Shown in pieces: positions 1-13,900 of a stretch of 13,900 bases of DNA; positions within the stretch are counted from its first letter, which is position 1; each line of letters starts with the position of its first letter. The notes under the pieces are model-generated. The model was not told the DNA's origin and ran no database searches. It was given only the letters and a program-made list of their open reading frames with translations. Source of the stretch: Candidatus Sigynarchaeum calidifontis (GTDB taxonomy: Archaea; Asgardarchaeota; Lokiarchaeia; Sigyniarchaeales; Sigyniarchaeaceae); NCBI GenBank assembly GCA_030587475.2, contig JAUQYZ020000121.1:1-13900 (forward strand), read 5' to 3'. The position numbers and the translations under genes were made by a program.

Positions 1-132
1 GATCTTGCTCTTTCGGTCACGTAATCTTTGGAACATGCCAAGCGCGAACGCACCGAAGAACACCATCGCGATGGTAAAGCAAACCGTGAATAGGACGGAT
101 ATGAGAACGCCCTCGAGCATGTATTGCAGCAT
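1..132 (-). CDS. Partial (runs off window edge) membrane protein, N-terminus
   Basis: Manual translation from ATG 132: MLQYMLEGVLISVLFTVCFTIAMVFFGAFALGMFQRLRDRKSKI, a hydrophobic TM segment followed by a basic stretch, open to position 1. TATA-like TTGTATAG (161-154, minus) lies ~22 nt upstream. Not in the ORF track. Confidence 0.6.
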   Translation of the reverse strand, partial: MLQYMLEGVLISVLFTVCFTIAMVFFGAFALGMFQRLRDRKSKI

Positions 133-240
133 CTTATCTCGCCTTGGTCACTACCTATACAATGGATCGCGGTGTTTTTTTAGGTATTGGCACTCGCCGC
201 GCTCGATTCAATTTATTGCTCCCACGCCTTTATAACGGTT

Positions 241-996
241 ATGAAAAAGGAGAAGATCCTCATCGACTACCTTCCCAAGAAAATCAGCAGGCCACTGCAG
301 ACCATCATCGAGGACATCATCGTGAAGTTCCGCCACAAGAACATGGTTGACCTGTATTCCAATTTCGTGAGCAAGGGGGATCTTGCCTTTGACATCGGGG
401 CATATCGCGGCCTGATCACGGACGTCCTCCTCTCGATCGGAGCAAAAGTGGTTGCCTTGGAACCCAACCCTGACATGTTTGCCAAATTGCAAAAAAAGTT
501 CCGAGACAAGCTAGACGTGACTATCCTCAACATGGGTGCGGGTAGCGTGGAATGTGAGCTCGATTTCCACATCAATCAGAAAGTACCGCAAAGCTGCACG
601 TTTTCAGAACAATTCATCAGCGATAGCAGGTATTCCTTGCGAAAATGGGAGAACACGGTTAAGGTACCCGTCACGAAGCTGGACACGCTGATCGACAAGT
701 ATGGAATTCCCAAGTTCATCAAGATCGATGTGGAGGGCTACGAGTGGAGCGTTATCCAAGGTCTCACAAAGAAGGTACCGTTCCTCACCTATGAATTCCA
801 CCGGGAGTTCATGGAAGACACGAAAAAATGCGCCGCGCACCTTGCAAGCCTCGGAAATGCCATGTTTAACTACAACCTCGATTTGAATTTCAAGTCCACG
901 TCGCCGGAATGGCTCACGATGGACGCGCTGTTTGCGGATCTGGACTCGCGCAAAGAGGAGAACTTGAAGGGAGATATCATCGTGAAGTTGACGTGA
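241..996 (+). CDS. FkbM-family SAM-dependent methyltransferase
   Basis: Motifs AFDIGAYRG, VVALEPNP, V.VTKLDTL and FIKIDVEGYEWSVIQG. ATG 241 preferred over TTG 187; TTTATTG at 212-218 would fit a leaderless start. Confidence 0.88.
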   Translation: MKKEKILIDYLPKKISRPLQTIIEDIIVKFRHKNMVDLYSNFVSKGDLAFDIGAYRGLITDVLLSIGAKVVALEPNPDMFAKLQKKFRDKLDVTILNMGAGSVECELDFHINQKVPQSCTFSEQFISDSRYSLRKWENTVKVPVTKLDTLIDKYGIPKFIKIDVEGYEWSVIQGLTKKVPFLTYEFHREFMEDTKKCAAHLASLGNAMFNYNLDLNFKSTSPEWLTMDALFADLDSRKEENLKGDIIVKLT

Positions 997-1040
997 AGGA
1001 ACGCGGGAATTTCGGTCTCAATGTTCGAACGTGGTTGGTA

Positions 1041-2060
1041 TCACGCCTCTGGAGCTGGCTCCTGCCTCACCGCCGGGACGGGAACTGGCACGTCGGCCGT
1101 GCCCGGCTTTTTCATGACCGCCTCTGATTCTATCTTGCTCGTGAGGAGGATGCCCACGACCATGAACGCGATCCCGATCCATGCTATCGAGTCGATCGGC
1201 TCCGCACACATGAAAAAACCGAACAAGATCGAGACGAGAAAGTTCAACGACGTGTTGATAGGTATCGTCACGCCCGCGCGCCCGTGCTGATACATCATCG
1301 TCAACAAGAAAAAATTGGCGATAAAATTGCCGATCCAGAGCCAAAAATAGACCGATGTGAGGAAATGAAGGCTGTTTGGAACGAAGATCGAGAACATGAT
1401 AGTGAAAAACTCGGGTAAATCGAACATGTTGAATATATCGACTTGAGGCAACGTTCCGAGATCGTATGCCCTCACGATAGGAAGCACCTTTAAGGCCAAG
1501 GTCCCGGCCACGCCCGATATGCCCGCCCCGACGGCGAGGAGCACCTCCTTGACCTTGACGTTTTTCAGCTTGGTATAGGTGAGAAGCGTCGCCAGCTCGA
1601 TGCCGCCAGCCGCCGCGAAGAAGAGCAGCCCTTGGACTCGCATCCCTTGGACAGCACCTGCATAGAACGGGGTCACCTGGGAATTCATGATGACAGACAT
1701 CATGAGCATCATGCTGAAGAAAACGACTACTAATCCAACGACTTCGACTTTCTTGAACCGTTCTTTCATGTACTTGGCAGAAAATATGAAGATGATGATC
1801 AAGCCAAGCCTTTGGCAGACCATGATGAATGAAACGGTGGATATAGACAACAGCGCGGCGAAATACGGGACGGAGAGGACATTAAGCAAGATCCCGGCAA
1901 GCCAGACCTTGTTCTTGGCGAGGTTCACGAGCACAGAAACGTATCTCTCCTCGCCAAAACGCGGGGATCGCGTCGCGCCGACCTTCTGGCATATGATGGC
2001 CCCGTAAACAAGGCCAACGTAGATCAAGTTGAAGATAAAAATCTCGAGCACAGAAGACAT
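1041..2060 (-). CDS. DMT-superfamily integral membrane transporter, NIPA (Mg2+ transporter)-like
   Basis: About 9 hydrophobic segments. The pattern CQKVG...KNKVWLAGILL...FSAKYMKERF and C-terminal EPI...WIGIAFMVVGILL match DMT/EamA/NIPA-type repeats. Confidence 0.65.
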   Translation of the reverse strand: MSSVLEIFIFNLIYVGLVYGAIICQKVGATRSPRFGEERYVSVLVNLAKNKVWLAGILLNVLSVPYFAALLSISTVSFIMVCQRLGLIIIFIFSAKYMKERFKKVEVVGLVVVFFSMMLMMSVIMNSQVTPFYAGAVQGMRVQGLLFFAAAGGIELATLLTYTKLKNVKVKEVLLAVGAGISGVAGTLALKVLPIVRAYDLGTLPQVDIFNMFDLPEFFTIMFSIFVPNSLHFLTSVYFWLWIGNFIANFFLLTMMYQHGRAGVTIPINTSLNFLVSILFGFFMCAEPIDSIAWIGIAFMVVGILLTSKIESEAVMKKPGTADVPVPVPAVRQEPAPEA

Positions 2061-2185
2061 CGGACTTCATGCCCAATAAGGAAGTACGGGTTAAAAAAAT
2101 GTACGTGGATTGTTCCCGGCTGCGTGTCTTGGTGGATATCCGTTTCACGTGAGCGTGAATAGATCGATCGAACGCACCCACCGGT

Positions 2186-2959
2186 TCATGCTTTCTTTTT
2201 CGCGCTCGATTGTTCTTCGTCCTTGGCCTCGGCGATTTCCTTCTTCATGGCGAGGATCTGGTCGACGATCTTGGCTGCCAGCTCGTGTCGCTCTTCACGC
2301 TTGATGTTCGGCTTCACCGATATCGGTTCAGCGACCTTGAAGTGAATGGATTTCCCAAGCTTGAAGCCTTTCAATGGCGTAGCGGCGTAGATGATGACGG
2401 GACAAGGAATGCCGGCTGCGAACTTGAGCACGCCGGATATCGACTTGTCGAGCCGCTCTCGCTCGCCATTATCGAGGGGGATCATGGCGACGAGGTCCTT
2501 GTCTTGGTTCAAGAACTCGATCGTCTTTTGGATCGGCTCCATGTCATCTTGCGATGTCGTTGAGCGGAACGCCCCGATAGCATCGAGCAAGGGTTTCAAG
2601 CCCGGGGTCTCGAACATTTTTACAGGAACCATGAAGTGTATTTTTCGAGGGGTTAGCTTCGTGGCGAGAAATAGCTCGATGGGTTGCTCGACGATGCTGC
2701 ATAAAATGGCAGGCTTGAACTCAGGGACGTGCTCCAGGCCGTCGATCTTCATGGGGATGAACGTGGAGCTCAAAAAATCGACCGATTTCCGAAGCGCAAG
2801 GTAAGTGAGCTCGTCGGCCACTTTCAGCATTTTCTGCTCTGCGAGGAATTTTCTTGCCCCTTCCAGGACCTTGTCGACCATCCCGAGCAGTGGATTGCTT
2901 TCCTTCTTCTCCTTGGTCTCGCTGTCCTTCGGTTTTTCTTCGCTCTTTTTTTCGCTCAT
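2186..2959 (-). CDS. PlsC/LPLAT acyltransferase-fold protein with degenerate catalytic motifs
   Basis: Fold-typical segments KIDGLEHVP..PAIL, RKIHFMV...FETP..LL..IGAF and A.IPCPVI are present, but NHxxxxD and FPEGT are not conserved. ATG 2959 chosen (GTG 2968 is an alternative). Confidence 0.65.
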   Translation of the reverse strand: MSEKKSEEKPKDSETKEKKESNPLLGMVDKVLEGARKFLAEQKMLKVADELTYLALRKSVDFLSSTFIPMKIDGLEHVPEFKPAILCSIVEQPIELFLATKLTPRKIHFMVPVKMFETPGLKPLLDAIGAFRSTTSQDDMEPIQKTIEFLNQDKDLVAMIPLDNGERERLDKSISGVLKFAAGIPCPVIIYAATPLKGFKLGKSIHFKVAEPISVKPNIKREERHELAAKIVDQILAMKKEIAEAKDEEQSSAKKKA

Positions 2960-3038
2960 TCGGATCACTAGGACTCGTGACTTGTTGTTCCGTGGAAACT
3001 GGCCCCCTTAAAAAAATAGCATACTAATCACGCGGGGA

Positions 3039-3065
3039 TAATAACACGTCTTGCGGTTGTTATTA
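3039..3065. repeat. 8-bp perfect inverted repeat TAATAACA-N11-TGTTATTA
   Basis: Read directly; lies in the divergent plsC-like/aroA' intergenic region. Confidence 0.6.
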
Positions 3066-3167
3066 AGAACCTTGATTGCCGAGTAATCATCGCCATCAAC
3101 GAGTTTCGACCCGTGGAGCATTAAAGATCACTTGTTTTATCACGAAGGCTTCAATTCCACGCGCTCG

Positions 3168-3201
3168 TTTCTAAAGAAGTGGTGTTGCTTAACTTTAGAA
3201 A
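3168..3201. repeat. 9-bp perfect inverted repeat TTTCTAAAG-N16-CTTTAGAAA
   Basis: Read directly; the spacer can pair further (AAGUG/UGCUU). Confidence 0.6.
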
Positions 3202-3345
3202 AACAAGCCCGGTATTTCGAGAACCTCCGTGCAAAACCTTAATTTTCGGGCCTCGCTCGCGCCAGTGAATCGATAATCCTAAATAGGTTGGCCCACTTTT
3301 TTCCCACCGGGTATAATCGAGCTTCAAACAGTCAAGGTGCCTTCT

Positions 3346-4164
3346 ATGAGTTCTATGGGAAAAGCGATCCGATTGGAACGCTTGATCAACAGGAAAACAA
3401 AGAAAACCATCATCGTGCCCATGGATCACGGTTTGACAATGGGTACCATCAAGGGCCTGGAAAACATGCCCAAGATCGTGAATCAAGTTGCCGAAGGCGG
3501 TGCAAACGCTGTTCTATTGCATGCGGGCGTGGCGCTGGCCGGGCACAGGACCTCGATGGGAGTACAGTCAACGAAGGACATTGGCCTCATCATCCACCTG
3601 TCCGCGAGCACGAAGCTCAGCCCCACGCCGAACCGGAAGGTGATCGTTTGCCCGGTCGAGGATGCTGTCCGGATGGGCGCTGACGGCGTGTCGATCCACA
3701 TCAACATCGGCGACAACGACGAGCCAGAGATGCTGCAAGAAATGGGCGAGATCTCGAGCATGTGCCGGTATTTCGGCATGCCCCTGCTTGCCATGATGTA
3801 CCCGCGCGGGCCGAACATCAAGGTGGAACACGATCCAGAGGTCGTCAACATCGCAGCCAGGGTCGGCGCCGAGCTTGGCGCGGACATCGTCAAGACCAAC
3901 TACACGGGAAACGTCGACACGTTCAAACCGATCGTCAAGGGCACCCCGGCGCCCGTCATCATCGCCGGCGGGCCGAAAATGAACACCGTGCGAGACATCT
4001 TGACGATGGTGCACGAGGCGGTCAACGAAGCGGGAGCAATGGGCATCGCTATGGGGCGCAATGTCTGGCAATCCGATGACCCCACGAAGATGGTGCAAGC
4101 CTTGTCCAAGATCATCAACGAGAACTGGACGGTCGAGGAGACCTTGAAGGAATTCCATTTTTAG
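3346..4164 (+). CDS. aroA': 2-amino-3,7-dideoxy-D-threo-hept-6-ulosonate synthase (DhnA-type class I aldolase family)
   Basis: GKAIRLERL, IIVPMDHG, HLSASTKLSPTPNRKV, PLLAMMYPRG, Schiff-base Lys in ADIVKTNYTG, AGGPK, GRNVWQ. SD AGGTG precedes ATG 3346. An FBP aldolase/DKFP synthase paralog cannot be fully excluded. Confidence 0.8.
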   Translation: MSSMGKAIRLERLINRKTKKTIIVPMDHGLTMGTIKGLENMPKIVNQVAEGGANAVLLHAGVALAGHRTSMGVQSTKDIGLIIHLSASTKLSPTPNRKVIVCPVEDAVRMGADGVSIHINIGDNDEPEMLQEMGEISSMCRYFGMPLLAMMYPRGPNIKVEHDPEVVNIAARVGAELGADIVKTNYTGNVDTFKPIVKGTPAPVIIAGGPKMNTVRDILTMVHEAVNEAGAMGIAMGRNVWQSDDPTKMVQALSKIINENWTVEETLKEFHF

Positions 4165-4167
4165 ATC

Positions 4168-4176
4168 TTTTTTTTT
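4168..4176 (+). terminator. Archaeal oligo-T terminator (T9)
   Basis: Nine consecutive T starting 4 nt after the aroA' stop, followed by a pyrimidine-rich tract. Confidence 0.6.
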
Positions 4177-4314
4177 GAACGCGTTCCATCTTGTTGTTCT
4201 TTGCCTCCCGAAGCGAGAATCGAGTTAAGCAGCGAACTTTCGGGTGGATGTTGAGAGCGTTTATTCTACTGGGCACCATGCGATAAAATGTCACTTTAGA
4301 GTGTCTTCTCAGTG

Positions 4315-4350
4315 TTCACTTTCATATCTGAAAGTGAAGGGTTATTAACC
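4315..4350 (+). promoter_or_regulatory. Putative operator palindrome plus TATA-like box of the metVF promoter
   Basis: TTCACTTTCA-TATC-TGAAAGTGAA (4315-4338) is immediately followed by GGTTATTAACC (4340-4350), ~50 nt before the metV start. Confidence 0.6.
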
Positions 4351-4397
4351 GTAAAACGATGTTGGATCATATCCTTTCGATAAAGAGTTGATCGATT

Positions 4398-5180
4398 TTG
4401 ATAGTGACTACAAAAAAAGCTATAGCGGAAATCCTTGACCTCCTCAAACCGTTCGAAAAAATCTTCTTGCTCGGTTGCGGGAGCTGTTCCACGGTATGCC
4501 TCACGGGCGGCGAGAACCAAGTCAAGGAGATGGCCAAGATTCTCACGGGAGAATCGGCCTACAAGTACGAGGTCGAAGTAGAAAAAGAATACGTGGATGA
4601 AAAAGGAAAGACGAAGAAGAAAAAGGAGATGGAGCTCCGTGAAGCAAAATGCCCAGACAAGCACGTGGTCACGGGCTCGATCATCATCGAGGAACCGTGC
4701 GACGTGCGCCTGGATACCAAGGATCTCCCCACGGCACCGGGGCTCGCGGACGCTGATGCCATCCTCGCCATGACGTGCGGCGTCGGGATGCAAACGGTAT
4801 ACGACGTGCTCATCAGCGCCAAGGAGAAGGGCAAGATCCCCAAGCTGCCAAGGGTGTTCGTCGCCAATGACACCCGGTTCATCGGCCAAACCGAGCGCAT
4901 CGGTGTGTTCCACGAGATGTGCCGTGGCTGCGGCGACTGCATGCTCAACGAAACCGGTGGGATCTGCCCTGTCGTCCGCTGCGGAAAATCGCTCATGAAC
5001 GGTCCCTGCGGGGGCATGATCAACGGCAAGTGCGAGGTCAAGGATTACACCTTGCCATGCGGCTGGGCGCAGCTGTACGAGCGCTTGAAATTGCTCAACA
5101 AGCTCGAGACATACGTCGACGTTAACGAGCCCCGCGATTTCGCCCGCTGGACGGCAACACGTGACGTCATGAACAGGTAA
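4398..5180 (+). CDS. metV: Methylenetetrahydrofolate reductase Fe-S/Zn subunit MetV (MTHFR C-terminal-like domain protein)
   Basis: GCGSCSTVC.TGG, TCGVG.Q, CRGCGDC, GGICPVVRCGKSLMNGPCGG..NGKCEV and PCGW..LYERLK. TTG start gives the family-typical MIV..K N-terminus. Directly upstream of metF. Confidence 0.88.
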   Translation: MIVTTKKAIAEILDLLKPFEKIFLLGCGSCSTVCLTGGENQVKEMAKILTGESAYKYEVEVEKEYVDEKGKTKKKKEMELREAKCPDKHVVTGSIIIEEPCDVRLDTKDLPTAPGLADADAILAMTCGVGMQTVYDVLISAKEKGKIPKLPRVFVANDTRFIGQTERIGVFHEMCRGCGDCMLNETGGICPVVRCGKSLMNGPCGGMINGKCEVKDYTLPCGWAQLYERLKLLNKLETYVDVNEPRDFARWTATRDVMNR

Positions 5181-5196
5181 ACGAGGTGCATGCAAC

Positions 5197-6132
5197 ATGG
5201 TGAAAAAAGTATTCTCCAACCTGAAAAAAGCCCTCGTCGAGGGCAAGTTCGTCTTCACGGGCGAGCTGGAACCCCATTTCTCGACGTCCATCGACGACAC
5301 GATCGAGGACGCGAAGGCCATGAAGAATTACGTGACCGCTGCCAACGTGACCGACAACCCCGCGAGCGACACGGGCTTCGTGAGCAACGTGGCATCGCAC
5401 ATCGTGCAAAAGGAGACCGGCCTCGAGGTCATCTGGCAGCTCAGGTGCACGGACAAGAACCGCATGGCACTCATCGCTGACTTGCTGGCCGCGCCGCGCC
5501 TTGGGCTGAAGAACGTGCTGGCACTGACCGGTGATCACCCGTGGTGTTCGCCGCACTGGCGGCCCTCGAAGCCGGTCTATGACCTCGATTCGACGACGCT
5601 CGTTCGACTAGTTAACGAGATGGTTGAAAAGCACACGGCGCTTGGCAAGGAATATGCGGGCCCCCCCGTTGAACTCAACGTCGGTGGCGCCGCGAATCCC
5701 AACGCCGGGCCGTTGGAAGCGGAACTCCTCAAGTTGCAGCGGAAAGCGAAGGTCGGCTGCGACTGGTTCCAGACCCAGGTCGTCTTCGACGTCCAGAAGA
5801 CACTCGACTTCCTCAAGGAAGTGAATAAGTTCGGCGTGCCCGTCTTGATCGGACTTTTCCCCATAAAATCATATGAGGTCGCCAATGGATTCAATACCAT
5901 GGTTCCCGGCGTGAAGGTTCCCGACTCGTTGATGGCCAAGTTCAAGCAGATCAAGACCGAATGGAAAAATGTTGACAAGAAGCGCATGGAAGAGGAATAC
6001 CTCAAGCTCAACGCGGAATTCCTCGGCCCCGTGATCCAGGAGCTGCGCAGCAAGAAAGCATGCGCGGGCATCCACATAATGGCCGTGCATTATCCCGAAG
6101 CATTCCCCGCGCTGTTCAAGTACGTTTCCTGA
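5197..6132 (+). CDS. metF: 5,10-methylenetetrahydrofolate reductase, flavin subunit
   Basis: FVFTGELEP, ANVTDNP, QLRCTDKNR, NVLALTGDHP, KPVYDLDS, FQTQVVFD, GIHIMA. SD GAGGTG at 5183-5188. Confidence 0.92.
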   Translation: MVKKVFSNLKKALVEGKFVFTGELEPHFSTSIDDTIEDAKAMKNYVTAANVTDNPASDTGFVSNVASHIVQKETGLEVIWQLRCTDKNRMALIADLLAAPRLGLKNVLALTGDHPWCSPHWRPSKPVYDLDSTTLVRLVNEMVEKHTALGKEYAGPPVELNVGGAANPNAGPLEAELLKLQRKAKVGCDWFQTQVVFDVQKTLDFLKEVNKFGVPVLIGLFPIKSYEVANGFNTMVPGVKVPDSLMAKFKQIKTEWKNVDKKRMEEEYLKLNAEFLGPVIQELRSKKACAGIHIMAVHYPEAFPALFKYVS

Positions 6133-6136
6133 GGCT

Positions 6137-6160
6137 CTTCTCTTTTTCTCGTTTTTTTCC
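6137..6160 (+). terminator. Pyrimidine/oligo-T terminator of metVF
   Basis: T5 and T7 runs within a CT-rich tract just after the metF stop. Confidence 0.5.
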
Positions 6161-6249
6161 ATCCGATAAGGATTTCATCAATTCAAGGAATTCTACAAGG
6201 TAGGATCGGCACCTCCACGCGTGTTATGGAGTAGAACAATGTCTAACCG

Positions 6250-6264
6250 AGAAGGTTTTTATTA
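6250..6264 (+). promoter_or_regulatory. Putative BRE-TATA promoter of the cold-shock gene
   Basis: Purine-rich AGAAGG followed by TTTTTATTA; would place the transcription start near ~6285, just ahead of the structured leader. Confidence 0.45.
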
Positions 6265-6285
6265 TGTTTAAAATTCCAGCAAGCA

Positions 6286-6371
6286 GACGGGAACCAATTC
6301 CGTCGGTCTATACCGGACAGTTGTGGAAGGATTTCGATCTTAAAAAATTGAGACCCGTTTCATAATCCGGT
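6286..6371 (+). promoter_or_regulatory. Structured putative 5' leader RNA (two hairpins) of the cold-shock gene
   Basis: Hairpin 1: 6286-6292 pairs with 6298-6304. Hairpin 2: 6312-6338 pairs with 6347-6371, 23 pairs including 4 G-U (hand-folded). Confidence 0.5.
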
Positions 6372-6408
6372 CGAATAAATGATAGATCGAGCAATAATCG
6401 TGAGTGAT

Positions 6409-6831
6409 ATGGTCAACGGAACGTGTAAATGGTTCAATTCGAGAAAAGGTTATGGTTTTCTCACGCCAGATGGCGCTCCCGAGGGTGAAAAATCGGACGT
6501 TTTTGTTCACCACACGAACATCAAGATGGAAGGCTTTCGTGCCCTCTACGAAGGCGACAAGGTGACCTTTGACATCGAGGAGGGTGCTAAGGGCAAGGAG
6601 GCAAAGAACGTCGTAGTCGTCGAGAAGGCTCCACGCCCGAAACGCCGCCGAGGTCCTCGCAAGGAAGGCGCAGCTGAAGCGAAACCCGAAGGTACGGCCG
6701 CGGGGAAAACCGAAGGCGCAGCTGAGAGTGGTGAGAAGCCGGCCGAAGACGCGGAAGCGAACTCGAAGAAGGGTAAGAAAAAGAAATCAGATTCAGAAGG
6801 CGGCGAGAAATCCGACTCGGAAAGTGAGTAG
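6409..6831 (+). CDS. csp: Cold-shock domain RNA-binding protein with long charged low-complexity C-terminal tail
   Basis: GTCKWFN, RNP1 KGYGFL, RNP2 DVFVHH, EGFRAL.EGDKVTF and KGKEAKNV, then a ~68-aa Arg/Lys/Glu/Ala/Ser tail. ATG 6409 is preceded by SD-like GAGTGA (ATG 6379 is an alternative). Confidence 0.92.
   Translation: MVNGTCKWFNSRKGYGFLTPDGAPEGEKSDVFVHHTNIKMEGFRALYEGDKVTFDIEEGAKGKEAKNVVVVEKAPRPKRRRGPRKEGAAEAKPEGTAAGKTEGAAESGEKPAEDAEANSKKGKKKKSDSEGGEKSDSESE
6664..6725 (+). repeat. Intragenic degenerate 24-nt/8-aa tandem repeat
   Basis: GAAGGCGCAGCTGA occurs at 6664-6677 and 6712-6725 (48 nt apart). Peptide KEGAAEA-KPEGTAAG-KTEGAAES. Confidence 0.55.
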
Positions 6832-6842
6832 AACCACGCAGC

Positions 6843-6900
6843 AGTGTTCAATGCATGCGTTCCATGTTGAATGCTACTAGCGTTTTTTCTTGATTTTCTT
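6843..6900 (+). terminator. Hairpin plus U-tract terminator / 3' stabiliser of csp
   Basis: AGTGTTCAA(TG)CATG-CGTTC-CATGTTGAATGCT stem (6843-6875), followed by TTTTTTCTT..TTTTCTTT. Confidence 0.6.
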
Positions 6901-6939
6901 TCCTTCCATACAAATTTTTAAAAGGCACCGGCTGGATGT

Positions 6940-8406
6940 TCACGGCACGTTCACGATGCGCTCAGGCGTGCCGCGGGCGAGCAAGAACCGGGGGTTGCTC
7001 GTCTCACCGATGGTCGATCCATCGACTTGAACCGAGATCGATGCAAGGGAGTTTCCCTTCCAACGGGCTCGCAACAAGTGCTCGCGGCCATCGAAGAAGA
7101 AGGTCATATCTAGTTTTTCCAGGCTGTCGAGCCCGGCCACGTTGAAATCGAGTCCTTTAGCGCCCGGCACGATGCCAAGGACGCCGAAAACGAGCGGCGC
7201 GAAGAGGGCGCCGTAATTGGCGATTTCGGGATCCCACGAGTCGTTCACGGTGTTGTTTCCAGGGTACAAGCAATTGTGCAGCACGCCCTCACGGGCCTCA
7301 TAATCCACGATCGCCTTGTACATCTCGGTACCCTCCTTGATATAACCATCTTGAAGCCTCGCTGCGGCCGCATGCGCCCCCAGCACCATCCAAACGTCCC
7401 CGTTCGTGACCGTGCGCCTGTATTCCTTCCTGCGCGCCCCGGTCCGCGGTCCGAGGTTCGTGAGGACAGGAAAAGGCATCTCGAGGGGCCGGCGGTGCGC
7501 GTTTGTGTATTCCCAGATACGTTTGCGCATCTCCGGCGGGGCGATTCGCCAGAGGATCGCAAAATAATTGGTGGTACTCTCGAAGTATTTATTCCCATGT
7601 ACTATATCCCCAGCTCCATCATTCCCGTGCACGTAATGGCCCAGTTCTGGATCCCAAAAACCGCCCTTCCGCACTGGCGCGTTGAATGCGGCGATCATCG
7701 CTTCTCGTGCGGTCTGATATTCTTTCACTCCAACATCTTTACCAATCAGTACCATGCACTCGGCCAGGAGTCGGAGCGTTTCGATGAAGTTTACGTTCAC
7801 GTTAGCGTTGTCGAGTGTCCAATCCGTGCACTCGGTCCAGTCGCCCTCGATACCAGCCTCGACCAGTACAGGATTGAACCGGCCGCGCAAGTTGTCAAGA
7901 ATGTAATCGACCGTGCAAGTGATTCTTTCAAGCTTTGCAGTTGTGAACCAGACCTTGTCATTTGTCACGAGGAAATATTCCATGGCCATTTTTGCCCAGC
8001 AGAGCATGTTATCCAGGTTGTATGACTCGCCGTGTTGGCCGCCATAACACTTGTACTCTGGCTGCGAGCCGAACACCCCGTCCTTGTGGATCACGGCGTG
8101 CGGCAATAAGCCGGTGGTTGGTTCCGGGCGCGTGAACCCGACATCGACCGTGGCTTTGTAAATGCTCGCGAGGTCACCGCCCGTGAGCAGCGGAAAGGCA
8201 TGGATCCCGCACCACGAGTTCCATCCCCAGACACCCACGTGCGTCGACGATACGAGGCGTTTCCTCCAGAGGAAGTGTTTATATTTACAATGTATCTCGT
8301 TGTAAACCCCGTTCCAGACCAGCTTGTTCAGGTACACGGTCTCGATGCGCCGCGGGATTCCCTCCAACCAAGGCAGGTTGGAAGAAAGAGAAAAAACGCC
8401 ATACAT
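6940..8406 (-). CDS. Six-hairpin (alpha/alpha)6 glycosidase-like protein
   Basis: Trp/aromatic-rich helical-barrel motifs (W..MAMEYF.VT.D..W, EGDWTE, AFN....FWD..LGHY, NGDVW) plus a C-terminal GIVPG beta domain as in GH78/GH63/GDE-like enzymes. Exact family is uncertain. Confidence 0.6.
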   Translation of the reverse strand: MYGVFSLSSNLPWLEGIPRRIETVYLNKLVWNGVYNEIHCKYKHFLWRKRLVSSTHVGVWGWNSWCGIHAFPLLTGGDLASIYKATVDVGFTRPEPTTGLLPHAVIHKDGVFGSQPEYKCYGGQHGESYNLDNMLCWAKMAMEYFLVTNDKVWFTTAKLERITCTVDYILDNLRGRFNPVLVEAGIEGDWTECTDWTLDNANVNVNFIETLRLLAECMVLIGKDVGVKEYQTAREAMIAAFNAPVRKGGFWDPELGHYVHGNDGAGDIVHGNKYFESTTNYFAILWRIAPPEMRKRIWEYTNAHRRPLEMPFPVLTNLGPRTGARRKEYRRTVTNGDVWMVLGAHAAAARLQDGYIKEGTEMYKAIVDYEAREGVLHNCLYPGNNTVNDSWDPEIANYGALFAPLVFGVLGIVPGAKGLDFNVAGLDSLEKLDMTFFFDGREHLLRARWKGNSLASISVQVDGSTIGETSNPRFLLARGTPERIVNVP

Positions 8407-8409
8407 TGA

Positions 8410-9213
8410 TCACTTGCCTTTGAACGATGGTTTCCGCTTTTCGAAGAAAGCCATGCATCCCTCCTTGAAATCGATCGTCGCCGCGGTTTCACCAACGCTG
8501 ATGGCTTCCTTGGCCAAGTGCACCTCCAATGAATCTGTGAACGCGGAATCGTACAAGCGCTTTACTGCCCCGAGTGCCTTGGTCGGCATGGAAGCTAACT
8601 TGCGGGCTAGCTCGATCGCATCCGCCACGACGTTCCCTGCCGTGACCGTGTTCACGAGGTTCAGTTCGTGTGCCCGCTTTGCATCGATAACGGGATTGAG
8701 GAACGCCAGCTCGGTCGCCATGGCCTGCCCGACGAGGCGTGGCAAGAAGAAAGGAAGACCACTGTCGGGTGATAGCCCGACCCCGGTGAAGGCGACCGAG
8801 AACTTGGCATCCTCCGCGGCGATACGGAAGTCACACGCGCATGCAAGCGAAAGACCCACGCCCATGCACGGGCCGTGAATGGCTGCGATGAAGGGAGCAT
8901 CCATAGTCCTAATACGCTTGATGCTCTCGTGGAATCGCGTCGCAAGGCTTGTTAAAAACTGGCCTGGCGCGTGGGCAGCTTTGAATGCCGCGAGGTCACC
9001 CCCCGCGCAAAAAGCTTTCCCGTTTCCTGCCACGACAACGGCACGCAAGCCGTCTTGGGCGGCGAGCTTGTCTAGCACGGCCATGAAATCGTCTGCAAGC
9101 TGCATGTTCAGCGCGTTCATCGCCCCTGGGCGATTCAATCGAACGATGGCAATGGTACCATCGTCTTTTAATTCCAGGTCGACGGTTTCGTGTTGTTTCA
9201 TGAGCATCGTCAT
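8410..9213 (-). CDS. Enoyl-CoA hydratase/isomerase (crotonase), PaaG-like
   Basis: LNRP..MNAL, AFCAGGDL, GVGLSLACACDFRIA, VGLSPDSG (PaaG-type Asp) and DFKEG..AFFEKRKPSFKG. The start could also be 9207 or 9201. Confidence 0.9.
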   Translation of the reverse strand: MTMLMKQHETVDLELKDDGTIAIVRLNRPGAMNALNMQLADDFMAVLDKLAAQDGLRAVVVAGNGKAFCAGGDLAAFKAAHAPGQFLTSLATRFHESIKRIRTMDAPFIAAIHGPCMGVGLSLACACDFRIAAEDAKFSVAFTGVGLSPDSGLPFFLPRLVGQAMATELAFLNPVIDAKRAHELNLVNTVTAGNVVADAIELARKLASMPTKALGAVKRLYDSAFTDSLEVHLAKEAISVGETAATIDFKEGCMAFFEKRKPSFKGK

Positions 9214-9290
9214 GGACGATCACCGATCCCTTTATTAGAGGATCCGTTACTTTAACCTTGGCATAATTAAATCAACGACTGCCCTTTTCT

Positions 9291-11723
9291 ATGATGCACG
9301 AGGATGAAGAGCTGGACATGGAATCGATCCGCGTAGATATCGAAGGTATCGTTCAAGGTGTCGGGTTCCGCCCGTTCCTTTATAACCTCGCGGTAGCCCA
9401 CGGGCTGAAAGGTTGGGTCATGAACAGGGGCAATGCGGGCGTTCGATTGCGGTTAGAAGGAGATAAGGCATCCATCGATCGTTTTTTGAGCGAGATCGAC
9501 AAGAAAAAGCCGGCCATTTCCCGTGTCGATTCGATCTCCGTCGAGCAAGTCACGCCGCCCGAAAACTTTTCAACCATGATGATTAAGGACAGCGAGGATG
9601 CCATGGGCCCGGCAATCGTGCTGCCCGCGGACATCGCCATTTGCGATGATTGCATTAAGGATATGACAGGAAACGGCCCTGGCGGCAAGGCAAACAAGTA
9701 TTACATGTACTCATTCGTCGCGTGCGCGAATTGTGGCCCGCGCTTCACGACGGTCGTGGACCTACCTTACGACCGGAGTCGCACGACTATGGTAGATTTT
9801 CCTTTATGCGACACGATTCAATCTCCGACGTGCAAGCAAGAGTACGAGGACCCGAACAATAGGCGGTTCCACGCGCAAGCATTCTCTTGCCCCAACTGCG
9901 GTCCAAACTATTTCCTGGCTGATCACGACGGGAACGTGCTCTCGCGTGAAAGCGACGCGCACAAGCAAGCTGCCAAGAAGATAAAGAACGGGAACATAAT
10001 CGCCATGAAGGGCATCGGTGGCGTCCATCTCGTGTGCGATGCGACCAGCGATCGAGCCGTCCTCCGTCTTCGCGAGCGAAAGGGCGACCGAAAATTCAAG
10101 CCGTTCGCGATCCTGGTACCAGACATCGTAATGGCCCGCAAACTAGTGGAAATCTCGGATGCCGAGGAACGCGTGCTGACATCCCATCGTCGCCCTATAC
10201 TCTTGCTAAAACGCAAGTTTCCATCGGCATTATCCCCGCATGTGGCCCCAGGGCTGAACTCCGTGGGGATAATGCTCCCCTACATGGGCTCCCACCACAT
10301 CTTGCTCCAGTATTGCAAGGCACAAGGTTTAGGCCCGCTCGTATTCACGAGCGGCAATCGATCGGGCGTACCAATGGCTATAACCAACGATGACATCGTG
10401 GCACAGCTCGGATCCCTCGCGGACTATTTCCTCATGCACAACCGCCGCATCGAACAGCGGTGCGACGATTCCGTCGGCAAAACTATTGGCGATGCATTCA
10501 TGCTTATCCGGCGTTCCCGAGGGTTCGTGCCGGAATTCATACCCGCTCCGGTCGATACGGGGGGAAAAGCAATCCTGGCCGTCGGCCCCGAGCTGCACTC
10601 TACGGGTGCCATCCTCAAGGGAAACAAGCTTTTCGCCACCCAGTACATCGGCGATGTCGTGAATCTAGAAACCCTGACGTATCTCCAGCAGGCAACGAAC
10701 CATTTCCTGCGGCTTTTACGGGTGCGTGGCAAGGATATCGCCGCCGTGGCATGCGACGCCCATCCAACCTTTCATTCTTCCACGTGGGCAAAGGAATTTG
10801 CCACTGCCATAGGAACCAGCTTGAATCCCATTTACCATCACAACGCGCATTGCGCGGCTCTCGCATTGGACAACAAACTCGACCCGAACGAATCCAGGGT
10901 ATACATCGCGTGCGATGGTGTTGGATATGGCGTGGATGGTAAAGCCTGGGGAGGAGAAATTTTTATAGGGTCGCTGTATGACTTGCTCCGTGCTGCTCAT
11001 TTGAAATACGTGCCCATGCCTGGCGGGGACGTGGCAGTCCAGCATCCAGCCCGCATGCTCGCCGCGTTCTTGCACGGGAAAATGGCGCGGAGCGAGATAG
11101 AATCTTTGTTTGCGGACCGCCTCATTCATGCTTTCAAGGGAGGGAGGGATGAATTCGCGCTCGTCCTCAACCAGCTCGACGCGGGGGACAAGCTGCCACT
11201 CACGTCGAGTACAGGCCGTTTGCTGGACGCAATGAGTGTTGCATTAGGTGCATGTACCGAAATGACCTACGAGGGCGAGCCAGCCATCCGTTTGGAAGGC
11301 ATGGTCTTTCCAGGATCAACCGTCGATCCCGCGCTCAAGAAATCGTACCTTGACTCGTTCATTATCAAGGAACGAGGCGGGTCCATCGAAATAGACATGA
11401 GCGGGGCATTTCCGTTCCTGATCCAGCAGACAAATCGCTACACGGGGCCGAGAGACCGTGCACGACACGCGCTGGCATTTCAGGTCGCCGTTGGCGAGTT
11501 TTTAGGGAACACGGCCGTGAGCATCGCAACGCGGGATGGTGTAAAGTCGATCGGCTTCACGGGCGGGGTTTCCTACAACGAATTCATCTTCACCGCGATC
11601 CGCGACGCGATCCGTGCTGCCGGCCTCGATTTTTTCCACCACAAAAACCTCCCGCCAGGAGACGGTTGCGTAGCCGCGGGACAAGCATTGCTGGCGTGGC
11701 TCGCGGCGCGGGACAAGAACTAG
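9291..11723 (+). CDS. hypF: [NiFe]-hydrogenase maturation carbamoyltransferase HypF
   Basis: Acylphosphatase GIVQGVGFRPF, Zn fingers (CDDC/CANCGPRF; RRFHAQ...CPNCGP), YrdC-like KGIGGVHL.CDA and TSGN.SG, Kae1-like HHNAH, DGVGYG, TSSTGRL.D and PPGDG. Confidence 0.96.
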   Translation: MMHEDEELDMESIRVDIEGIVQGVGFRPFLYNLAVAHGLKGWVMNRGNAGVRLRLEGDKASIDRFLSEIDKKKPAISRVDSISVEQVTPPENFSTMMIKDSEDAMGPAIVLPADIAICDDCIKDMTGNGPGGKANKYYMYSFVACANCGPRFTTVVDLPYDRSRTTMVDFPLCDTIQSPTCKQEYEDPNNRRFHAQAFSCPNCGPNYFLADHDGNVLSRESDAHKQAAKKIKNGNIIAMKGIGGVHLVCDATSDRAVLRLRERKGDRKFKPFAILVPDIVMARKLVEISDAEERVLTSHRRPILLLKRKFPSALSPHVAPGLNSVGIMLPYMGSHHILLQYCKAQGLGPLVFTSGNRSGVPMAITNDDIVAQLGSLADYFLMHNRRIEQRCDDSVGKTIGDAFMLIRRSRGFVPEFIPAPVDTGGKAILAVGPELHSTGAILKGNKLFATQYIGDVVNLETLTYLQQATNHFLRLLRVRGKDIAAVACDAHPTFHSSTWAKEFATAIGTSLNPIYHHNAHCAALALDNKLDPNESRVYIACDGVGYGVDGKAWGGEIFIGSLYDLLRAAHLKYVPMPGGDVAVQHPARMLAAFLHGKMARSEIESLFADRLIHAFKGGRDEFALVLNQLDAGDKLPLTSSTGRLLDAMSVALGACTEMTYEGEPAIRLEGMVFPGSTVDPALKKSYLDSFIIKERGGSIEIDMSGAFPFLIQQTNRYTGPRDRARHALAFQVAVGEFLGNTAVSIATRDGVKSIGFTGGVSYNEFIFTAIRDAIRAAGLDFFHHKNLPPGDGCVAAGQALLAWLAARDKN

Positions 11724-12799
11724 ATGCGAAGGAGGAGCCGCTGAAGGGCGTGCGGGATATCCTTGAATCGCCCGACCCGGACGAACATTCCCTTGCCGAG
11801 GCGCGCGATGCGCTCGCAGTTCTTGATACCGCCTTTTGCTTGCTCCAGTTCGGTCGGGATGGCGATCACGTGAAGATTCTCGAATCGGGATGCCGCTCCG
11901 TCGATTTCACTAACGGCACGGTTTGCGTTCCCGTCCGTGATGAGGATGGCGAACTTGCAATGCGATCGCGCGAGTTTCATTTGCTCGAATCCATCGTTCA
12001 AGCCAGCGGTGATGTTCGTAAACCCGGATGCCGCAGTCTCGAGAATCTCGTCAATGAGGTTATTGATATCACGGCGTTCATTTATTTTCTTGAGAACTTG
12101 CGAGCTTGTATTGAATATCACGACGGAATATTCATTTTCTCTCATATGATAGCTAAGAACTGCGGTAGTTAGAGCAGCATTGAAGATCAATCGACCATAC
12201 ATGCTGCCGGACGTGTCAAGAATCAGCACACCCGCTTTTTTCTTTTGCACGCGTTCGAACCCGGCGAGATCGGCGGCCGTCATGTACGTGAGCGGGCGGC
12301 CGGCCATGTTCAATACCGTCCGGGGCACGTCTAGCTCCGTTCGATATGGGATATAACGAGTACGCAACTTGTGCCAACCCTTCAAGCCTCGACCAGCGAT
12401 CTTGCGAGACTCTTTTAAAATGACCATTTTTGTCAAGTTCTTGAAGAGCTGTTTGTAGTATGGGGTCAACACGCTGCGAAGGAGGAAGAAAAACTCCGGC
12501 GCGAACTCCGATCCTTTTTCCGCTGCTTGCTGGACGAGCTCGTAGCCGATCGCCTCCTGGAGGGGAGCGGCGACCGCGGCACGGTTGAGTTCCGCGAGCC
12601 CGCGTAGCGCGTTCAAGTTTTTTTGCTTGATGGCAGCGCGTGCAAGCTCCTCGATCTCTTGATACTCGAGATGTTGCGCGAGCTTCTCGTAATAGCCAGG
12701 GGATTTCCCCTGGATTTGCATCTGTATCTTGAGTATGTCCTTTTTCGATGCGTTCCCGCGCATGATCTTGGTTTCCAGCTGTTTCGACTCATCGAGCAA
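11720..12799 (-). CDS. VWA (von Willebrand factor A) domain protein, MoxR partner; probably the 3' part of a frameshifted AAA-VWA gene
   Basis: Complete MIDAS: ILDTSGSM, GFTNI, LITDG, plus ELDVPRT upstream motif. First start is a TTG; the frame is open upstream through the end of the MoxR gene. Confidence 0.88.
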   Translation of the reverse strand: MLDESKQLETKIMRGNASKKDILKIQMQIQGKSPGYYEKLAQHLEYQEIEELARAAIKQKNLNALRGLAELNRAAVAAPLQEAIGYELVQQAAEKGSEFAPEFFFLLRSVLTPYYKQLFKNLTKMVILKESRKIAGRGLKGWHKLRTRYIPYRTELDVPRTVLNMAGRPLTYMTAADLAGFERVQKKKAGVLILDTSGSMYGRLIFNAALTTAVLSYHMRENEYSVVIFNTSSQVLKKINERRDINNLIDEILETAASGFTNITAGLNDGFEQMKLARSHCKFAILITDGNANRAVSEIDGAASRFENLHVIAIPTELEQAKGGIKNCERIARLGKGMFVRVGRFKDIPHALQRLLLRI

Positions 12800-12825
12800 G
12801 CCTTCGATGCTGCCGCCCTCGTCAT

Positions 12826-13704
12826 CTATCGGAAAAAATCTTTCGTCAGGACCGATCGCGCGATGAGCGTGATGACCTCCTCGGGGCTCTTGTCGATGCC
12901 TTCCTCGACATCGATCTTGGTGACGAGAGAGGCGATTGCAACGTCAATCCAGAGTTGCTGGTCTGCCCACGGGTCGGCGCCCGTGCTTATGAGCATGGCC
13001 ACCATGTCGATGGCGCCGCGGATGCTGGAACCACGGCGGATATCCTTGTTCTTGCGGGTGGCGCGCGTGATCTTCACCGCGGCAGAGATCATGTCGTTGT
13101 CGGTGCAACCCGTGTGGATCTTCACGATATTTCGCTCATCCTCCTCGGATTGATAATCGAGCTTGATCCAGACGAAGCGATCCTTGAGCGCCTCCCCAAG
13201 CACGGAGACTCCGATGTGGGATGCGGGGTTGCGGGTGGCGATCGTGAAGAAGCCGGGAGCGGCGTTGATGCGCTTGAGGTTCGGGATGTCGAGGAAGCCC
13301 TCGTCGAGCGCCGTGAGCAACAAATTTTGGGAACTCTCGGGTGCCCGGTTGATCTCGTTGATGAAGAGGCATCCACCGTCCATCATCGCTCTTGCCAGGG
13401 GGCCATACTCGAATGCCTCCTCGACATAGCCCTTCTGGATCAAGACGGGCGGCTGCCACGTGCCGATCAAGGTCGTGGAATACAAGTCCTCGGTTCCCTC
13501 GACCCTGTGAAAATGCTTGTCATATTGCTGCGCGATGGCCTTGGCCAAGGTAGTTTTCCCCGTGCCGATCTCTCCTTCGAGAAGGATATTCTTGCCGGCC
13601 TCGTGCGCGACGACCATCATCTTGAGCTCCTTTTCGCGTCCGACTATATGAAACGTGGATTGGATTTCTTTCACGATGTCGGCCAAAGGCTTCTTGTTCG
13701 CCAT
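12826..13704 (-). CDS. MoxR-family AAA+ ATPase (CoxD/GvpN-like), 292 aa
   Basis: IVGRE, Walker A GEIGTGKT, GPLARAM, Walker B variant LFINEINR, QNLLL.ALDE, ATRNP, ALKDRF and S.RGAID. ATG 13704 has SD GGTGA and TATA-like CTTAAAAG upstream, so the ORF-track extension to 13878 is rejected. Confidence 0.92.
   Translation of the reverse strand: MANKKPLADIVKEIQSTFHIVGREKELKMMVVAHEAGKNILLEGEIGTGKTTLAKAIAQQYDKHFHRVEGTEDLYSTTLIGTWQPPVLIQKGYVEEAFEYGPLARAMMDGGCLFINEINRAPESSQNLLLTALDEGFLDIPNLKRINAAPGFFTIATRNPASHIGVSVLGEALKDRFVWIKLDYQSEEDERNIVKIHTGCTDNDMISAAVKITRATRKNKDIRRGSSIRGAIDMVAMLISTGADPWADQQLWIDVAIASLVTKIDVEEGIDKSPEEVITLIARSVLTKDFFR
12832..12838 (-). other. Candidate -1 programmed frameshift site U_UUU_UUC
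   Basis: X_XXY_YYZ heptamer in the correct phase (GAT TTT TTC CGA TAG); the -1 frame is the VWA frame. Confidence 0.65.
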
Positions 13705-13900
13705 GGTTTCACCGGGTGCAAGTGATAGAATCCCTTTTAAGGACAAATATTCGGTAGTGAAAACGTTTTGTATGCACAACGGGGCGGGACCTAGCACGTG
13801 CTGATGTTTTATAACGGACGAAATAGATTTATTATGAAAGCAATAAAATACATACAGCAAACAAAGTATCGTTTGCACTTGTGGGAAAAAAAGTGCGCCG

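Follow-up and report, generated by a model that had tools for sequence, protein, structure and literature searches.

In a 13,900-nucleotide (nt) stretch of DNA from Candidatus Sigynarchaeum calidifontis (GCA_030587475.2, contig JAUQYZ020000121.1, positions 1-13,900; the whole stretch is referred to here as the window), an open reading frame (ORF) for an AAA+ ATPase of the MoxR/NorQ class is followed on the minus strand by an ORF for a VWA domain protein in a different phase. Do these two frames represent adjacent genes, or a single gene in which some ribosomes change frame at the junction? An initial annotation of this DNA proposed the latter. Based on a comparison of the junction among homologous loci, we consider it probable, at roughly 80%, that the ATPase and VWA frames form one recoded gene in which a -1 ribosomal frameshift yields a free ATPase as well as an ATPase-VWA fusion.

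The ATPase frame (12826..13704, minus strand, as are all features of this locus; ATG at 13704) encodes, as the product of termination, a 292-amino acid (aa) AAA+ ATPase of the MoxR/NorQ (AAA_5) class. Its C-terminus, KDFFR, is encoded by AAA GAT TTT TTC CGA TAG. A run of six T residues (12838-12833) inside this 3' end is part of the heptamer T_TTT_TTC, or U_UUU_UUC in the mRNA (12832..12838), which has the X_XXY_YYZ phase, is located one codon 5' of the TAG stop codon (12826..12828), and is the proposed -1 shift site. The -1 frame at the junction reads FFPIDDEGGSIEGLLD and continues without stops into the VWA ORF; the -1 part of the trans-frame product (11720..12832) comprises 370 codons and a stop codon (11722-11720). 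Upstream, the -1 frame is free of stops to ~12946, and the junction stretch is FFPIDDEGGSIEGLLDESK. The conceptual products are 292 aa by termination and 291 + 370 = 661 aa by frameshifting, and the junction peptide expected of the 661-aa fusion, by conceptual trans-frame translation, is DFFPIDDEGGSIEGLLDESK. All coordinates and readings of the initial annotation were reproduced on the minus strand, including the codons at the ATPase end, the phased heptamer one codon before the stop, the stop-free passage into the VWA ORF, which we followed to 11722-11720, and the lengths of 292 and ~661 aa.

To compare this arrangement with that in relatives, we fetched 110 loci and located both ORFs in 108 of them, of which 88 are distinct. 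A full-length orthologue is present in 35 of 41 genomes of the window's order, and the named relatives belong to the Promethearchaeota (Asgard) and include Lokiarchaeum ossiferum, Harpocratesius, and metagenome-assembled genomes labelled Borr-, Hod-, Hermod-, Odin-, and Sifarchaeum. In 108/108 homologous Asgard loci, the VWA ORF lies in the -1 phase with respect to the ATPase frame. All 88 distinct loci contain a zero-frame-phased NNT TTT (U_UUU) 0-2 codons 5' of the ATPase stop codon, i.e., the Phe codon is TTT and the codon before it ends in T in every case. The junction reads GAT TTT CAA/CAG TAA in 63 loci, GAT TTT TAA/TAG in 14, and GAT TTT TTC NNN stop in 3 (the window lineage), while CAT, AAT, CCT, and CTT precede TTT in single cases; the Lokiarchaeum ossiferum locus (L020/L082) has AAU UUU CAG UAG. 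The T-run is T4 in 70 and T5 in 15 of the 88 loci. From the codon usage of the individual loci, we calculated a joint probability of ~1e-26 for the conserved codons, a value obtained over loci that are not independent of each other. In the GC-rich window lineage, TTT is the minor Phe codon (TTT versus TTC elsewhere in the two ORFs: 4 versus 18 in the window, 0 versus 21 in L002, and 3 versus 16 in L003), yet L001, L002, L003, and L115 all have GAT TTT TTC. Because the phase and the phased U_UUU recur in 108/108 loci, the arrangement at the junction, as judged from these sequences, is more than chance.

The VWA frame opens 10-16 nt before the ATPase stop codon in most loci. We found no ATG, GTG, or TTG in this frame between -15 and +30 nt of the stop codon in 84 of the 88 distinct loci, while 4 have one. 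The earliest ATG in the VWA frame is located a median of 73 codons 3' of the stop codon (range, 12-140; 88 loci), past invariant residues of the helical domain.

Next, we considered conservation at synonymous sites. For this, the 88 conceptual fusions were aligned, and the identity of synonymous codons was calculated per column and in segments of 7 columns over the 644 columns. The mean synonymous identity was 0.50 (standard deviation, 0.18). The nine highest segments (0.86-0.96) all lie within junction columns -2 to +7, and a secondary peak is present at +15 to +18. As the same sequences contribute to every column, the peak at the junction is not accounted for by common ancestry alone. The locus has these features of a frameshift cassette: a phased slip site, a -1 ORF without a conserved start codon, and raised synonymous conservation.

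Natural in-frame fusions of the two parts also exist. They were found when the VWA part was used as the query of an exhaustive HMMER search; a word-index search had missed them, which is an artefact of sensitivity. The HMMER search returned proteins of 585-711 aa with C-termini matching the VWA part. Of seven long proteins tested, all have an N-terminal AAA_5 domain, and six also have a C-terminal Pfam VWA domain; the AAA_5-VWA fusion proteins have lengths of 614-711 aa. One of them (P0029) is 46% identical to the window's ATPase up to ...SDFFR and then continues in frame with a VWA part of 34% identity. When 12 fusions were aligned jointly with the conceptual frameshift products, the two groups proved collinear through the junction. 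Three fusions were checked as DNA. Two of these, P0068 (L112; GAA TTC CAG CAA) and P0040 (L113; TCA TTC AAA), have no T-run, and P0029 (L111) has GAT TTT TTT CGT, i.e., a T7 corresponding to T6 plus one base. Thus, the phased T4-T6 run is confined to the split arrangement and absent in 3/3 fusions. In L111 (3859-3885; an Asgard Logan contig of SRR21418557), the T7 joins ATPase and VWA in one 711-codon frame, and the neighbouring genes code for CDC48, an EAP30 (ESCRT-II-like) protein, SecE, and Spt5. This T7 could be a true fused allele, a homopolymer error, or slippage caught in the library.

The initial annotation had proposed that relatives be searched for a slip site conserved before the stop codon, a consistent -1 phase, and natural fusions aligned over the linker, and had named a conserved independent start of the VWA ORF as evidence to the contrary. 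The phased U-run is present in all loci, the phase is invariant, and AAA_5-VWA fusions run collinearly across the junction; an independent start is not conserved.

We also compared the predicted stability of RNA downstream of the shift site with that of synonymous recodings. For the 63 nt after the site in the 88 loci, the mean z was -1.53, with 43/88 values below -1.64. In control segments from the same ORFs, the mean z was -0.40, with 15/176 values below -1.64.

Several observations weigh against frameshifting. The loci come from related genomes, and counts across them, therefore, overstate independence. Most lineages have the U4 tetramer alone, which is a weak slip site. In the window and its closest relatives, the downstream RNA has no excess stability (z = +1.0, -0.2, and +1.7, with +1.0 for the window itself). 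Moreover, the VWA frame of the window contains a TTG at +29 nt and an ATG at +65 nt, and a start codon overlaps the ATPase stop codon in L002 (GTGA, 1499-1507) and L114 (ATGA, 996-1010). Both of these loci keep the conserved U-run beside the overlapping start codon, and their lineages may use translational coupling, alongside or in place of frameshifting. Some independent initiation may also occur in the window.

These start codons are central to the alternative that ATPase and VWA are two ordinary adjacent genes, in which translation of the VWA protein would start at TTG 12799, at ATG 12763, or, through termination-reinitiation, at a non-canonical codon close to the ATPase stop codon, with the U-run kept for the sake of an Asp-Phe C-terminus. 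Gene callers indeed annotate the two frames separately, and MoxR proteins and their VWA partners are normally separate proteins, e.g., NorQ/NorD (PMC13036017). The TTG (12797..12799), which the initial annotation correctly gave as the first start of the VWA frame, is the earliest canonical start codon, but it is not conserved, with CCG at the homologous codon in L002, and it lies within the candidate hairpin described below. The earliest ATG (12761..12763) encodes the Met of KIMRGN, which is likewise not conserved (Leu in L003 and Ile in L115). Across the loci, with the junction lacking a nearby canonical start in 84/88, the earliest start codons are scattered from +17 to +326 nt, and their use would cut off invariant residues. 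A need for Asp-Phe would leave unexplained why TTT and a preceding T-ending codon are invariant where TTC and GAC are preferred, and in-frame fusions that share this C-terminal motif encode its Phe with TTC. The maximum of synonymous conservation at the junction would also be left unexplained. Together, these points make two separate genes an improbable explanation: independent initiation may contribute where a start codon overlaps the stop codon, but cannot be the general route to the VWA frame. The ATG directly after the TAG (12825-12823) is in the ATPase frame, and thus in the wrong frame for VWA, as had been noted initially. It opens a 70-codon ORF (12613-12825) that overlaps the conserved VWA frame; this ATG derives from the ATA GAT GAC codons of the VWA frame, and the ORF is most likely not a gene.

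In a second alternative, it is RNA polymerase rather than the ribosome that slips on the T-run, adding one U, so that a fraction of the mRNAs would encode the fusion in frame. The T7 of L111 is the exact sequence expected from such an added U, and in chelatase frameshift genes with long A-runs, the efficiency grows with run length (PMC3711429). However, the runs considered here are T4 in 70/88 and T5 in 15/88 loci. Runs of T4-T5 are too short for efficient slippage by the polymerase. Moreover, the strict zero-frame phasing of NNT TTT is relevant to the re-pairing of tRNAs and not to the polymerase. We conclude that transcriptional slippage on T4-T6 runs is unlikely, and we give it very little weight as the source of the fusion. 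Finally, although homopolymers are prone to error and one related contig (L111) has the in-frame T7 version, it is extremely improbable that an assembly or sequencing error hides a plain in-frame fusion (T7), or that the gene is a decaying pseudogene, given the -1 phase in 108/108 independently assembled loci with T4, T5, or T6, the agreement of four independent assemblies of the window lineage on T6, and the intactness and conservation of both ORFs, which have mean column identities of 56-59% and in which no catalytic or MIDAS residue varies.

The slippage is most likely ribosomal. In the proposed mechanism, most ribosomes would terminate at the TAG and release the free 292-aa ATPase, while a fraction would slip by -1 at U_UUU_UUC, where the tRNA-Phe molecules in the P- and A-sites could re-pair with UUU UUU. 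The shifted ribosomes would then stay in the -1 frame and synthesize the 661-aa protein consisting of ATPase, acidic linker, helical domain, and MIDAS VWA domain. In most relatives, the tRNA in the P-site would slip on U_UUU while a sense or a stop codon occupies the A-site; a Z_ZZN tetramer is the minimal -1 shift site (PMC5009743). We also considered +1 frameshifting, as at UUU_Ynn (PMC5009743), and rejected it because the VWA frame is -1 (i.e., +2) relative to the ATPase frame. As in NorQ/NorD and CbbQ/CbbO, the ATPase would, by analogy, form a ring that works with a VWA adaptor, and this adaptor would be tethered covalently to a minority of the ring subunits, with the ratio set by the efficiency of the frameshift. 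The short and long forms would co-assemble in one ring; that frameshifting might fix the stoichiometry of a hetero-oligomeric ring, as initially suggested, is conjecture.

In the window, the candidate 3' stimulator of frameshifting is a kink-turn-like hairpin (12785..12824, minus strand), which begins 7 nt after the heptamer and was tentatively assigned as a match to a kink-turn descriptor. Its 5' side consists of UGAC (12824-12821), GA (12820-12819), and GGGCGG (12818-12813), followed by the loop, and its 3' side consists of UUGCUC (12799-12794), a GAU bulge (12793-12791), GA (12790-12789), and GUCG (12788-12785). L002 has a perfect GGGCGGG/CCCGCCC inner stem, and L003 has a CUAGA/UCUAG outer stem. 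Using a strict version of the descriptor, we found matches in 5 of 17 lineages outside one type of loci, referred to as f4 (window included; 0.41 expected from synonymous recodings), and in 0 of 71 f4-type loci (4.2 expected). A different hairpin, with a UCUCU/AGAGA stem, is common to the f4-type loci; this was the sole stem recovered by RNAalifold from 48 f4-type sequences, with little covariation. Among synonymous recodings of the window, 5% likewise match the kink-turn descriptor, and a MAFFT alignment of the divergent downstream regions was not structure-consistent. Because the GA steps of the element come from acidic GAN codons, the kink-turn is a tentative assignment. An alternative CAUCGA/UCGAUG hairpin can be formed in the window and partly in L002 and was rejected, as it cannot be formed in L003 or L115. 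It has the outer UGAC/GUCG pairing in common with the kink-turn-like hairpin, and neither of the two is thermodynamically distinguished in the window lineage.

A further possibility, which we regard as rather unlikely, is that L7Ae or another kink-turn protein binds the hairpin as a true kink-turn and tunes the ratio of free ATPase to fusion according to the state of L7Ae or ribosome biogenesis, the product being midasin-like. Our literature search found no paper on a natural kink-turn that stimulates frameshifting. If true, -1 frameshifting in a core gene of the closest archaeal relatives of eukaryotes would be stimulated by a natural kink-turn, and its product would share the architecture of midasin, in which an AAA_5 ring is joined through an acidic linker to a MIDAS domain.

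To which family does the ATPase belong? Against Pfam, the 292-aa protein matches AAA_5 (72.9 bits) and AAA_3 (66.1 bits), while Mg_chelatase (PF01078) scores just 21.7 bits, with a match confined to 40 residues at the P-loop, and TIGR02031 scores 19 bits versus a cut-off of 499. The best partial matches in NCBIfam are GvpN and MadB, and the top single-domain relatives in the PDB are NorQ (58 bits), MoxR 2r44 (54 bits), and CbbQ. The protein has the characteristics of the MoxR class, i.e., AAA_5/AAA_3 matches, a length in the range of ~270-330 aa, a Walker A motif (GEIGTGKTT, 13549-13575, minus strand), a sensor, and Arg residues. Its Walker B motif is hhhhN-E, not D-E (window 13354-13359; N116-E117), and N116 and E117 are invariant across 20/20 aligned family members. 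Of three in-frame fusions, P0029 and P0040 share this N-E, and P0068 has E-E.

The downstream frame matches the Pfam families VWA_CoxE, VWA_2, and VWA. The -1 part begins with an acidic disordered linker, which is followed by a helical domain of ~140-150 aa and the C-terminal VWA domain; the long product, thus, matches the architecture AAA+ - acidic/Pro linker - C-terminal MIDAS VWA. The CoxE-type VWA domain carries a complete MIDAS, with DTSGS at 12203-12217 (minus strand), and the MIDAS residues D207, S209, S211, T273, and D301 are invariant in the alignment. In an AlphaFold model of the VWA part, the pLDDT (predicted local distance difference test) was 83.5, and residues 1-14 had values <50 and were taken as disordered. 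Foldseek searches with this model placed VWA chains of NorD, from NorQ-NorD complexes, at ranks 1, 2, 11, and 16. Judged by sequence and predicted fold, the ATPase-VWA pair is nearest to NorQ/NorD rather than to ChlI/ChlD.

We found no universal or conserved neighbour across the 88 loci. The commonest is a gene for a Ras-family small GTPase located directly 3' on the same strand (e.g., L073:2781-3440), which is present in 24/88 loci and absent in the window. Other loci have lineage-specific neighbours, including MoeA, FTR1, and Nre. In the window, the VWA frame is convergent with a gene for an 810-aa HypF, a hydrogenase maturation carbamoyltransferase (9291-11723, plus strand), and the two stop regions share 4 nt (11720-11723). 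The relative L115 has the same neighbours, i.e., HypF and an enoyl-CoA hydratase. Elsewhere in the window, a gene on the plus strand (6379-6831) encodes a protein in which a cold-shock domain (CSD; 82.9 bits) is combined with a long, charged tail.

If the two frames are one recoded gene, this would represent an ancient and strictly conserved recoding of a gene that is found in 35/41 of the genomes searched from the window's order as well as in numerous further lineages of Asgard archaea. One gene would, consequently, be split in two in current annotations, and the VWA protein in them would be wrongly truncated at the N-terminus. The strategy of combining ring subunits with adaptor-tethered subunits would extend from the ChlI/ChlD chelatases to the MoxR/NorQ class, for which the stoichiometry of the partners is a live mechanistic question. 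To our knowledge, few cases of programmed frameshifting have been documented for cellular genes of archaea. Full-text literature searches returned no paper on an AAA_5/VWA frameshift system (Asgard, MoxR), and such recoding was found published for chelatase chlD genes only.

How does the locus compare with known systems? Among those without frameshifting, NorQ/NorD and CbbQ/CbbO (PMC13036017; PDB 9qh6, 9qhd, 9qhe, 5c3c, and 6l1q) have the same order of ATPase and VWA genes and a complete MIDAS; NorQ, MoxR 2r44, and CbbQ are the nearest single-domain relatives of the ATPase, and the NorD VWA is the nearest fold of the VWA part. In contrast, these partners are separate polypeptides with their own start codons, whereas the VWA frame described here has no conserved start codon and would be reached by frameshifting. 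Also, the VWA protein of ~370 aa is much shorter than NorD or CbbO, and Walker B is N-E rather than the D-E of the NorQ/CbbQ type. Among the neighbours of the ATPase-VWA loci, we found no context of nitric oxide reductase (NOR) or Rubisco.

Midasin (Rea1) is a eukaryotic protein with a ring of six AAA_5 domains, an acidic linker, and a C-terminal MIDAS domain. The predicted fusion has a parallel architecture, with an AAA_5 ring, a flexible linker rich in D/E, and a tethered MIDAS/VWA domain. The ATPase profile matches midasin at E = 8e-61, and the MIDAS domain of Rea1 is at rank 6 in Foldseek. A specific kinship was rejected since this E-value sums six domains, of which the best single one scores 32 bits and, thus, less than NorQ (58 bits); by sequence, the VWA profile search did not find midasin. 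In dnaX, as proposed here, two AAA+ forms (tau and gamma) are made from one gene, and -1 slippage on a homopolymeric heptamer sets the subunit ratio. However, the frameshift in dnaX gives the shorter product and the frameshift proposed here the longer one, and the family and the domain of life differ.

The closest parallel in recoding, already drawn in the initial annotation, is fs-chlD of the Mg/Co chelatases, in which, in bacteria and Methanococcales, -1 frameshifting on A-rich sites generates subunits resembling ChlI and ChlD (PMC3711429; PMC9227772; PMC5009743). The parallel holds as an analogy but not as membership in the family. In both systems, a short AAA+ subunit would be made by termination and a long AAA+-linker-VWA protein by a programmed -1 shift, the two frames are annotated as adjacent genes, and other organisms have homologues fused in frame. 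Archaeal examples of fs-chlD are from Methanococcales, while the locus described here is from Asgard archaea. The AAA+ domain is of the ChlI/Mg_chelatase type (PF01078) in fs-chlD versus the AAA_5/MoxR-NorQ type here, and the shift site is A_AAA_AAR or a longer A-run in the 2013 fs-chlD cluster (PMC3711429) versus U_UUU_UUC/U_UUU_Y here. Moreover, fs-chlD pairs with CobN/ChlH, whereas the ATPase-VWA locus is not adjacent to such a gene, and the window contains none. A single CobN-like gene was found in this genome, on contig C205 (51633-54803). There, a 677-codon frame with matches to Mg_chelatase and AAA_5 is located directly 5' of the 1260-codon CobN/ChlH-like gene (C205:49340-54803); together they form a class I chelatase locus of the conventional kind, distinct from the locus in the window. 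Membership in chlD was, accordingly, rejected based on the type of the ATPase domain and the separate chelatase locus. Compared with these systems, the ATPase-VWA junction is real and probably represents a new variation on a known recoding strategy.

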